From the IMG/VR virus record IMGVR_UViG_3300030433_001893, positions 1-31,208 of that record: 31,208 bases of DNA; one strand, given 5' to 3'. Origin of the DNA: a virus. Taxonomy: Duplodnaviria; Caudoviricetes. The translations under genes were made by a program, and so were the position numbers. Of this stretch, positions 19,410 to 27,021 are shown piece by piece (position 1 is the first letter of the stretch; every line of letters starts with the position of its first letter). The notes beneath the pieces were generated by a model. That model made no database searches. It was not told where the DNA came from and saw nothing but the letters and a program-made list of their open reading frames with translations.

Positions 19410-19600
19410 TGCAACGCCCTGACCCAATGATCGCCGCTAAGCCTGGAGCGGAGGACATACAGGCCATGGCCTCAAGAGTGCTGTGGATCAACGAGTTGTA
19501 TTTCCTTGATGGTCGCGATCAGATCAGCCATCCGCAGCATGGTTTGTACACCGGCCTAACCAACAAATATGCGCTGCTGGAGTCAACTGACGGCATCTAA
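19406..19600 (+). CDS. Hypothetical protein
   Basis: 64-aa ORF overlapping the previous stop and the next start; ELYFLDGRD...HGLYTGL. Confidence 0.6.
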   Translation: MMQRPDPMIAAKPGAEDIQAMASRVLWINELYFLDGRDQISHPQHGLYTGLTNKYALLESTDGI

Positions 19601-19725
19601 TGGCTAAATCAATCAGCGGGCAAAATTTTGTCCCTAGCAAACCAAAAAAGACTCGTCAAGGGGATGGATCACATTCAAAACCGTCCCATGGACGGAAGAA
19701 GTATCGTGGCCAAGGAAAACGTTAG
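19600..19725 (+). CDS. Small basic protein (41 aa), not in ORF track
   Basis: Hand translation MAKSISGQNFVPSKPKKTRQGDGSHSKPSHGRKKYRGQGKR; TAATG coupling to the upstream gene; fills the gap before 19737. Confidence 0.7.
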   Translation: MAKSISGQNFVPSKPKKTRQGDGSHSKPSHGRKKYRGQGKR

Positions 19726-19736
19726 TTCTCTTTCCA

Positions 19737-20099
19737 ATGTTCAAACTTCTCATTGCGAGTGGTGTCGCCGTTTCAGCAGCTGCGCTGGCATCTCCTGCGC
19801 TCGCCGACGTGTATGTGAACCCTGAATTCAACGGTGGTTCCTACGGCAACGATTGGCTGGGTGGAACCCTCAACCTTGATGTGGGTTACGAAACCTCTGA
19901 TGGCGTGTATTCCTTTTACATCCAAGGCGGTCCTGCAGTTGTCATGCCTGACGGCCTTGACCAAGAGCTGGAACTCGCTGGCAAATTTGGTGGCTCTGTC
20001 GCCGTAAGCGAGAAAGCCTCTGTGTATGGCGAACTCAGCGGCATCACTGGCGATGAGTTTTCTGTTGGAACCAAAGTTGGCATGAAGTACAGCTTCTGA
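19737..20099 (+). CDS. Small outer-membrane beta-barrel-like protein
   Basis: Signal peptide ending ALA|D, alternating amphipathic strands (LNLDVGYE, FYIQGGP, SVYGELSG), C-terminal beta-signal GTKVGMKYSF with terminal Phe. Confidence 0.8.
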   Translation: MFKLLIASGVAVSAAALASPALADVYVNPEFNGGSYGNDWLGGTLNLDVGYETSDGVYSFYIQGGPAVVMPDGLDQELELAGKFGGSVAVSEKASVYGELSGITGDEFSVGTKVGMKYSF

Positions 20100-20122
20100 G
20101 CTACTTTTTAATCGCAGATCTG

Positions 20123-20163
20123 CCCCCTCTCCTGGTTCTCACACAGCAGGAGGGGGGTTTTTT
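20123..20163 (+). terminator. Rho-independent terminator
   Basis: Stem CCCCCTCTCCTG / CAGGAGGGGGG with 12-nt loop GTTCTCACACAG, followed by TTTTTT. Confidence 0.8.
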
Positions 20164-20609: not shown

Positions 20610-20830
20610 GCGATCAGGTCAATTCACCAGCGCACTACACCAAGGGTCGCGTCGAAGCGATTGAGGTGATCGAAGATGTAGTCGCTGGTGCGCCTGACGC
20701 TGTAACTGGCTATCTGGTGGGGCAGACCATGAAGTACTTACTGCGGGCATGGCACAAGGGCAACACCGTGCAAGACCTGCAGAAGGCCGCTTGGTATTTA
20801 AACCGCGCTATCGACAGGTTCAACGCTTAG
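20606..20830 (+). CDS. DUF3310 family protein (T7 gp1.7 / SaV-like, possible nucleotide kinase)
   Basis: DQVNSPAHY..G.VEAIEVI...G..MKYL.R..HKG..QDLQKAAWYL signature. Confidence 0.85.
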   Translation: MSDQVNSPAHYTKGRVEAIEVIEDVVAGAPDAVTGYLVGQTMKYLLRAWHKGNTVQDLQKAAWYLNRAIDRFNA

Positions 20831-21141
20831 GTAATCATCTTGGTGTTGGCGGTTGGATCATCGTCATGAGCTTCAGGCCCGAAGCCTTCGGACTTGATTT
20901 TTGCCATATCCAGTTCTGGCGCGGGTGCCTCAGGTTTCTTGTCAAACGACGCTAGCCATTCCCGTAGCGCGTCACCTGTAGGCGTACCTTTGGGCCACTT
21001 CACCCATTTGAGGATGGCTTTTGGATCTGTAAATGGCCTGGCTGAGTTGCCGCACAATACGGTGTAAACAACAGGCGGTCCCTCGCGTCTGCGGTTACGT
21101 TCAATCCAAAGTTGACCTGCTGTAAACCGCTCTGACTTCAT
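20827..21141 (-). CDS. Hypothetical protein
   Basis: 104-aa ATG ORF filling the gap between two + strand genes, with only a 4-nt stop overlap and a shared CATG at the start. Confidence 0.6.
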   Translation of the reverse strand: MKSERFTAGQLWIERNRRREGPPVVYTVLCGNSARPFTDPKAILKWVKWPKGTPTGDALREWLASFDKKPEAPAPELDMAKIKSEGFGPEAHDDDPTANTKMIT

Positions 21142-26445: not shown

Positions 26446-26610
26446 TTACCGATAAGTCGATCTCAGTATCTCAGCCGCTTCAAGTGCTGCGCTATGGGTG
26501 TGGCACGGTTCACCCCAATACACAACTGATCCATCAAAAAACCAGGGCTTGAACAGAGGCATGATTCCAAGTGTCACAAGGTGAACTCCAACAGAATTTG
26601 GTTGTCGCAT
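26446..26610 (-). CDS. Hypothetical protein (54 aa), not in ORF track
   Basis: Hand translation MRQPNSVGVHLVTLGIMPLFKPWFFDGSVVYWGEPCHTHSAALEAAEILRSTYR; stop 3 nt before the next start. Confidence 0.6.
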   Translation of the reverse strand: MRQPNSVGVHLVTLGIMPLFKPWFFDGSVVYWGEPCHTHSAALEAAEILRSTYR

Positions 26611-26624
26611 GGCTATGATTCGGG

Positions 26625-26715
26625 CTCTTCACCCTGAAAGGGGCGAAGGACAAGTCACCTGCAGCGGATCAGGTGTGAGGGGTGCGGATGCGTGAGTCGG
26701 CCTTAGTCCGCAACC
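26625..26715. ncRNA. Putative structured intergenic RNA (family not recognised, strand uncertain)
   Basis: 116-nt gap containing nested stems CTCTTCA/TGAGGGG, CCCT-GAAA-GGGG, CACCTG/CAGGTG and TGCGGA/TCCGCA; TATGAT at 26614-26619 upstream on +. Confidence 0.5.
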
Positions 26716-26726
26716 AATTGTGTGGC

Positions 26727-26951
26727 CTAGGTGATGTAGGGCCAGGAAATCTCATCATCTTTTTGCCAAGCGTCAGGCTCGAAGCCTCGTGACGAAACGT
26801 AGTCGGCGAAGACCCGCTGCAGCTCGGTTTTAGACACACCTGCAGCAGCAGCCAGTTTCGCTGCGTTTGCCTTTCCTCGATACAAGAGATCGAGGGCATC
26901 CTCCAGCGCTACACCAGCGCTAAGGTCAATGCGAGACACACCTTTGGTCAT
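26727..26951 (-). CDS. Small HTH-like protein
   Basis: ALDLLYRGKANAAKLAAAAGVSKTELQRVF resembles a helix-turn-helix. Confidence 0.6.
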   Translation of the reverse strand: MTKGVSRIDLSAGVALEDALDLLYRGKANAAKLAAAAGVSKTELQRVFADYVSSRGFEPDAWQKDDEISWPYIT

Positions 26952-27021
26952 GCCCTATCACTACGACGACAAAAAGAAAGGCACCAAAAAAGGCGGCAGC
27001 AAGAAAGGCGGCAAGAAGTAA
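26950..27021 (+). CDS. Lys/Gly-rich micropeptide (23 aa), not in ORF track
   Basis: MPYHYDDKKKGTKKGGSKKGGKK* exactly fills the gap between two - strand genes. Confidence 0.5.
   Translation: MPYHYDDKKKGTKKGGSKKGGKK

Follow-up and report, generated by a model that had tools for sequence, protein, structure and literature searches.

What occupies the widest gap in the minus-strand operon of a small tailed phage, and does it, as a first-pass annotation proposed, plug the phage into the Yfr1/Yfr2 network of its host? The window analysed here is a virus record (IMG/VR IMGVR_UViG_3300030433_001893, the whole stretch of 31,208 nt), with lambda-like tail genes on the + strand and recombination genes on the − strand. 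The gene at 19737–20099 (+) encodes a 120-aa protein that matches Phage_OMP (PF24653) in Pfam, and 456 records among GenBank phages match this protein. Because 446 of these are named Synechococcus, Prochlorococcus or cyanophage (the other 10 are marine or uncultured), the phage is likely a cyanophage with a marine Synechococcus host, in keeping with the cyanobacterial host supposed on the first pass. A close cultured relative was looked for and not found, the best identities being below 60%. Just 5′ of the OMP gene lies a 41-aa basic ORF (19600–19725, +), which is clustered in 14 of 19 genomes compared and has no Pfam match. Between the OMP region and the endolysin, − strand genes of no assigned function run from 20827–21141 (−) to 23716 (−) (PHROGs 37139, 848, 650, 564 and 721), and this block is common to most relatives.

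The gap spans 26611–26726 and, at 116 nt, is indeed the widest between − strand ORFs taken as genes. The letters quoted for it in the annotation (GTGTGAGGGGT at 26673–26683, TATGAT at 26614–26619, CACCTG/CAGGTG and CCCT-GAAA-GGGG) are all present. It is bordered by two ORFs:

26446–26610 (−), 54-aa ORF, divergent; no fixed partner of the RNA described below, no PHROG or Pfam match
26727–26951 (−), 74-aa ORF, convergent; likewise no fixed partner, no PHROG or Pfam match

Relatives of the 54-aa gene were collected at 67 loci, which form two groups. Among the 25 closest loci, the block upstream of the gene is nearly unchanged wherever the sequence includes upstream DNA. In the distant relatives (L029, L037, L039, L044, L054 and L056), the homologues of the 54-aa and 74-aa ORFs abut with a gap of 0, and because the same two genes can stand without it, the block is a discrete insert. 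An overlapping 76-aa ORF (26669–26899, −) was set aside; it has no family match, and it cannot be general since the RNA occupies many contexts.

Pattern scans of IMG/VR located the core of the block in many other gene contexts on related viral contigs, the carrier phages being 35–45 kb with lambda-like tail genes. A census over all collected loci gives at least 135 distinct regex matches, 134 of them real (137 matches with a wider regex). The match at L570, which has neither −10 box nor stems, was dropped as chance, and a weak covariance-model match in G054 (20 bits) was rejected with the core absent. Degenerate pattern scans, covering 5/64 and 2/64 of the IMG/VR parts, returned mostly chance matches; in the second, the covariance model was run on 100 of 120 loci and recognised 3 as real. 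Clustering of the flanks of the 134 copies gives 14 groups upstream and 16 downstream, with insertions after the large terminase gene, after a homologue of a 79-aa gene, at several junctions of − strand operons and at other sites, and a convergent stop codon often lies within about 15 nt downstream. Each of 23 carrier records holds exactly one strong covariance-model copy, and 27 more distant, mostly partial records hold none. Among 50 OMP-bearing records, seven have a strong copy, none of them among the five near-complete ones, in which the homologous junctions are empty where found. No copy was found by blastn in the INPHARED phages, and the exact pattern gave a single match among 185,579 prokaryote genomes of GTDB, with none in cyanobacteria. 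That match (L441) sits on a 1.5-kb MAG contig in a bin labelled Pseudomonadales, and since the ORFs downstream of it group with ORFs from viral carriers, the contig is probably a piece of phage DNA sorted into that bin. The distribution resembles that of an accessory gene, a cassette that appears patchily, in single copy and at shifting gene junctions in uncultured marine phages.

Folding of the gap as a single sequence gave nothing beyond chance (z = −1.56 on + and −1.25 on −). Comparison of the copies points to the following fold:

26624–26651 (+), P1, a 5′ hairpin of variable sequence (CUUCACCCU-GAAA-GGGGCGAAG in this copy), from folding of 120 copies
26656–26675 (+), P2, the stem CACCUG/CAGGUG (26656–26661 with 26670–26675) closing the 8-nt loop CAGCGGAU, from covariation
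26664–26711 (+), a pseudoknot helix of 6 bp, loop bases GCGGAU (26664–26669) with GUCCGC (26706–26711), from covariation
26679–26704 (+), P3, a hairpin pairing 26679–26683 with 26700–26704, C26685 with G26699, and 26687–26689 with 26696–26698, from covariation

Of 120 copies, 99% have a 5′ segment with a folding energy under −3 kcal/mol (median −9.8), and P1 was left out of the covariation count because its columns align poorly. In P2, five of the six pairs show double-sided change. P3 has 100% of its cells paired, with double-sided change in five of nine pairs, and contains an invariant bulged G26684 and the loop GCGNGA (26690–26695); outside it, C26662, A26678 and A26705 are likewise unpaired and invariant. 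The pseudoknot cells are also 100% paired. One A-U pair becomes G-C in L825 and L846, probably a single lineage, a U-G pair becomes C-G or U-A in further copies, and the remaining four pairs are invariant, as tallied in a 31-row set enriched for variants. The first search patterns had the pseudoknot fixed, and the scans were repeated with it left free; standard pairing was then found in 117/119 and 103/107 copies, and every full-length exception still pairs.

Taking P2, the pseudoknot and P3 together, 98.0% of cells are paired and 7 of 21 pairs show double-sided change across 86 sequences (90 minus four that were incomplete or identical). None of 500 shuffles did as well, in controls that ignore relatedness, and slid controls reached 30–54% paired. 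In 70 distinct sequences, drawn from 18 of the 19 P2-variant copies and 53 hand-picked copies, the values rise to 98.7% and 10 of 21 pairs. A rough tree over the same 72 columns gives 5, 6, 2, 2 and 2 coupled events, apparently independent, at five pairs, and all one-sided changes retain pairing as G-U on the + strand. When the strands of the pseudoknot are kept from pairing, P2 and P3 form with a probability above 0.5 in 84% and 78% of copies, respectively. In this copy, the nested minimum free energy favours the helix chosen in the annotation (−35.8 versus −23.8 kcal/mol for the covarying fold, pseudoknot energy excluded). A helix that competes between the 5′ end and P3 is stronger than −8 kcal/mol in 44% of copies and is not conserved.

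On this comparative evidence, we regard as real a conserved structured RNA on the + strand, in which a compact pseudoknot follows a 5′ hairpin, and the element is very probably a functional RNA. The annotation had thus been right to see a structured intergenic RNA here, and the covariation analysis it called for supports P2, P3 and the pseudoknot, while its own drawing fares differently. The three-way junction is not the conserved fold, its enclosing stem CUCUUCA/UGAGGGG being 51.6% paired (over poorly aligned 5′ columns), and the hairpin UGCGGA/UCCGCA is 73.8% paired with 0 compensatory changes. The stem CUUCACCCU/GGGGCGAAG, offered as the alternative state of a switch, does exist, but as the usual 5′ hairpin.

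The signals for transcription and for the ends of the RNA are as follows:

26614–26619 (+), TATGAT, a −10 promoter-like hexamer, probably of a sigma70-type promoter, from conservation of TAnnnT
26624–26719 (+), predicted non-coding RNA of ~95 nt, from conservation and covariation, its ends placed by promoter spacing and a conserved tail
26712–26718 (+), 7-nt tail, nearly free of G and with an invariant final U, a putative end or processing signal, from column tallies

TAnnnT stands 39–48 nt upstream of the core, in the + orientation of the window, in 88/88 copies compared to 21 of 880 control bands (2.4%), and the census over all loci found the box in 134/134 real copies. The TATGAT that had been pointed out upstream is therefore a likely promoter; a generic promoter scan overlooked it because that scan demands a −35 match. 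The −10 box and the G-U wobble pattern both point to + as the RNA strand, which speaks against the Yfr1-like RNA that had been suggested on the − strand. The base 7 nt after TAnnnT is G in 69 of 120 copies and is usually the first base of the 5′ hairpin. From these features, we infer a 5′ end at 26624–26626 and a 3′ end at about 26718–26720. The tail comes right after a conserved CCGC, and U at 26718 is present in 120/120 aligned copies and in 134/134 real ones. A hairpin terminator within 150 nt downstream was detected in 1 of 121 copies, where the same test behind the OMP gene was positive at 58 of 59 loci. The RNA lies on the strand of the structural genes in all 131 copies with nearby marker genes (six have no marker), a count for which part of the early markers had been defined on carrier genomes in the first place. 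In 12 genomes it is positioned between the lysis genes and the portal gene, and it is always upstream of portal and capsid, at 1.4–12 kb from the portal gene where both are in one record.

Relatives of the element also occur in metatranscriptome contigs, which have read-through flanks and are unstranded. Their summed depth is higher over the core and several contigs start at 26624–26626, although the depth peak rests on the runs of one study and these starts are also graph branch points. The contigs show presence in RNA libraries only.

The proposed link to Yfr1 rested on a single segment, which the covarying fold divides:

26673–26683 (+), the 11-mer, its first 3 nt in P2, the next 3 unpaired and the last 5 in P3, from column tallies

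This segment is found where the annotation placed it, but it is not conserved as a unit. All 11 nt pair with the Yfr1 motif in 10 of the 135 regex matches, and at least 9 of 11 in 113; exact GTGTGAG is kept in 50 of the 135, and AGG(A/G) is almost invariant. Among 120 copies, the variants that break pairing with ACUCCUCACAC are A at 26674 (43 copies), C at 26676 (23), A at 26677 (20), A at 26682 (36) and C at 26683 (71), and position 26674 tracks its partner within the RNA. Within the window, 10-mers up to two mismatches from CTCCTCACAC are not enriched (14 versus a shuffle mean of 28.6). The P3 loop plus one base (GCGUGAG, 26690–26696, +) is a second near-complement of CUCACAC, at 6/7, with C or A as the fourth base in roughly one copy in three; the surroundings of start codons in 12 carrier genomes were searched for a conserved complement of this loop, and none was found.

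Comparison with Rfam gave nothing near a gathering score for the whole window, the gap or ten loci with divergent copies, and the Rfam scan that the annotation had recommended yielded no family match. The Yfr1 model (RF01116) reached 13.3 bits (E 2.5) on the − strand, against a gathering threshold of 38, and had no match in G000, and the Yfr2/Cyano-1 model (RF01701) had none up to E 10. Yfr1 exposes ACUCCUCACAC between two hairpins and has an intrinsic terminator at its 3′ end, whereas here the motif-like sequence is on the strand opposite the promoter, with variation at five positions, and the promoter strand nearly always lacks such a terminator. Yfr2 is characterized by an unpaired GUGUG(U)AGGAG-type motif at its 5′ terminus; the corresponding stretch here would lie ~50 nt from the 5′ end and is mostly paired. 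Like the Yfr1, Yfr10 and Yfr2 sRNAs, the RNA is small, has a probable promoter of its own and keeps no fixed gene neighbourhood, and part of the copies share with Yfr2 a GUGUGAGG-like stretch that matches the Yfr1 motif by complementarity. Unlike the Yfr2 family, it is pseudoknotted and occurs in phage contigs and, by exact pattern, in no cyanobacterial genome.

A better Yfr1 mimic lies elsewhere in the window, at the loop (20135–20146) that the annotation had picked out as a possible pairing partner and that proved noteworthy for its conserved Yfr1-type seed:

20102–20163 (+), candidate small RNA behind the Phage_OMP gene, separate from the pseudoknot RNA, from seed, −10 hexamer and terminator
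20102–20107 (+), −10-like TACTTT
20138–20144 (+), seed CUCACAC in the terminator loop
20158–20163 (+), U-tract

CTCACAC or CTTCACAC is found within 80 nt of the OMP stop codon at 55 of 65 distinct loci compared to 0 of 249 controls, and in none of the six cultured myo- and podoviruses among those 65. A −10-like hexamer (TAnnnT or TATAAC) lies within 10 nt of the stop codon at 56 of 59 loci, a set in which the terminator is missing only once. The seed is exposed in varying structures, and exact ACUCCUCACAC is present in L684. These features suggest that ~20114–20163 is a Yfr1-seed small RNA, likely either a phage-made regulator of host porins resembling Yfr1/Yfr10 or a Yfr2-binding site; ten OMP loci compared with Rfam gave nothing near gathering score. 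As for a circuit between the two RNAs, an obligatory form is not supported, as each element occurs without the other. The seed stands alone in three of the five near-complete OMP-bearing relatives (G074, G075 and G077), and five carriers have the pseudoknot RNA without the seed (G034, G039, G042, G044 and G045). Pairing within a genome is nevertheless predicted, with duplexes of about −8 to −17.5 kcal/mol that involve 9–11 nt in several genomes, from 14 pairs of which one had no motif picked and one was mis-picked. In L600, L612, L614 and L629 (from G034, G042, G044 and G045), the place directly 3′ of the OMP stop codon is taken by another hairpin, long and imperfect, instead of the CUCACAC module.

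How, then, might the pseudoknot RNA act? The reading that we prefer, and hold tentatively, is that of a portable cassette of promoter and RNA, whose discrete product acts in trans by binding a host protein. A host sigma70-type polymerase would start the transcript at 26624–26626, and P1 would shield its 5′ end. The pseudoknot helix and the nearly G-free tail with its invariant U would set the 3′ end, which may be formed via weak termination or RNase trimming. Because so many unpaired bases are invariant, the RNA may present a surface read by shape, formed by C26662, A26678, the bulged G26684, A26705 and the GCGNGA loop. The partner is guessed to be a host protein because inheritance is patchy, single-copy and junction-hopping; most plausibly, it would be an RNA-recognising defence or decay enzyme that is held up during infection. 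For a trans-acting RNA we count the covariation in three helices, the universal −10 box, the one copy in each carrier record and the dispensability seen in all five near-complete OMP-bearing relatives, and a 5′-UTR switch is disfavoured because there is no fixed downstream gene and a convergent stop codon is frequent. A phage pseudoknot RNA that neutralises a defence protein has a precedent in pseudo-ToxI, according to part of the text of PMC3475682. Like ToxI and pseudo-ToxI, the present RNA is phage-borne and pseudoknotted and could be a protein-binding decoy. The same part of that source describes ToxI as 36-nt repeats in an array, which the toxin cuts, whereas here one ~95-nt unit is found per genome, and neither a cognate toxin nor a host antitoxin counterpart was found, given the absence of a fixed neighbour and the lone match among prokaryote genomes. 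This difference counts against the trans role, as do the near absence of a terminator and the nested minimum free energy, and the strict late-strand orientation and the location between lysis and portal genes are left unexplained by it.

Orientation and location are what the main rival, itself rather unlikely, would account for. Here the RNA would be a cis-acting leader of a late promoter that, like HK022 put, modifies the RNA polymerase transcribing it for read-on into the head and tail genes. HK022 put binds the zinc-binding domain of the polymerase and suppresses pausing and termination in cis. The present RNA has its first base at the +1 predicted for its promoter, nearly always lacks a hairpin terminator and stands without exception on the structural-gene strand, 5′ of portal and capsid. 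PMC9378689 describes, in the part consulted, a putL of ~70 nt just behind its promoter that acts at least 10 kb away. The similar size, the position behind a sigma70-type promoter (a probable one here) and ahead of a long operon in the same orientation, the missing terminator and a conserved bulged G recall putL and putR. The put fold, however, has two stems arranged as a V, stem I containing a triplex, and the word pseudoknot is absent from the searched text of that source; the fold here instead combines a 5′ hairpin with a pseudoknot into which another hairpin is inserted. Nor is there Rfam similarity; the RNA shifts between junctions, complete relatives do without it, and read-through at several sites would be antisense to recombination genes. 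Few late-strand terminators precede the head genes for such a polymerase to pass, as judged by a strict scan, which overlooked a known terminator as well. A clearly unlikely reading is an unrecognised ribozyme or ligand-sensing RNA, with a core that is catalytic or binds a small molecule and that cuts or releases the late transcript near the tail. The compact pseudoknot with its inserted hairpin and many invariant unpaired bases would suit this, as would the helix competing between 5′ end and P3, except that this helix is not conserved, no Rfam model matches at a useful score, and no consistent downstream gene, ribosome-binding site or terminator is there to be controlled. We consider quite improbable the Yfr2-like sponge that the annotation favoured, in which GUGUGAGG would capture, by base-pairing, Yfr1/Yfr10 of the host or the OMP-tail RNA of the phage itself. 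The frequent pairing of at least 9 of 11 nt, the near-invariant AGG(A/G), the conserved CUCACAC seed behind the OMP gene in this phage group and in-genome duplexes of −13 to −17 kcal/mol in several pairs speak for it, and Yfr2 neutralises Yfr1 by comparable pairing (PMC6778093, in part). On the other hand, 8 of the 11 nt are in covarying stems, while Yfr2 has a 5′-terminal motif free of pairing (sections of PMC2518516 and PMC2662882); common substitutions at five positions break the pairing, 26674 following its intramolecular partner instead, and the two RNAs each occur alone. It is hardly credible that the element lacks a function as RNA and is a selfish repeat or works at the level of DNA. 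This would fit the many different junctions occupied, but not the G-U wobble asymmetry of one strand, the compensatory change in the pseudoknot, the fixed −10 spacing or the single copy per record.

Among the non-coding RNAs known from cyanophages, tRNAs and the cis-leaders of T4-like phages predominate. The wcaG, manA, PhotoRC-II and glnA motifs are, like the present RNA, conserved structured RNAs in cyanophage genomes; they are Rfam families in T4-like phages, and wcaG and manA are likely 5′ leaders (parts of PMC2864571 and PMC9964418). The pseudoknot RNA differs from them in having no Rfam match, in being found in 35–45-kb phages and in having no fixed downstream gene. A riboswitch or cis-leader, such as wcaG, manA or an RNA of preQ1-II-like topology, is recognised by a steady position 5′ of same-strand genes and an expression platform, in place of which convergent stop codons or unrelated genes follow here, without a terminator. 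No Rfam ribozyme model matches that would indicate a self-cleaving class, and likenesses to HDV-like, hammerhead and pistol ribozymes, a tRNA T-arm, a CsrA site and SAH riboswitches were rejected by eye against consensus features. The T-loop-like GGUUCUAGUCC is not kept across copies.

No published description of the pseudoknot RNA was found in a literature made up mostly of other than subscription papers, and exact-string matches were unrelated by title. The motif strings are absent from supplements 3–6 of PMC10690425, the part of that source covered, and an earlier listing as an anonymous candidate in its candidate alignments is possible. More tentatively than the trans role itself, we suggest a new class in which the folded RNA of a portable promoter–pseudoknot cassette would latch onto central machinery of the host with no phage protein involved; the target would be an anti-phage RNase or RNA polymerase, in the latter case in the manner of a differently folded cyanobacterial put. 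The same phages would then produce a second, Yfr1-seed RNA directed against porin messages. What sets the element apart is that a strongly covarying pseudoknot comes with a promoter signal of its own and behaves like an accessory gene in uncultured small tailed phages likely infecting marine Synechococcus. If the proposal is true, a phage RNA that blocks a defence enzyme or reprograms the cyanobacterial RNA polymerase without any protein would be a new mechanism of host takeover. At ~95 nt, the RNA is short enough for synthesis and direct testing, and the OMP-tail side finding offers a testable phage-made Yfr1-seed RNA.

A tiny lysine-rich ORF (MPYHYDDKKKG...) lies at 26951–27021 (+), on the late strand inside the − strand operon, and in the terminase context short basic ORFs resembling it come after the pseudoknot RNA.
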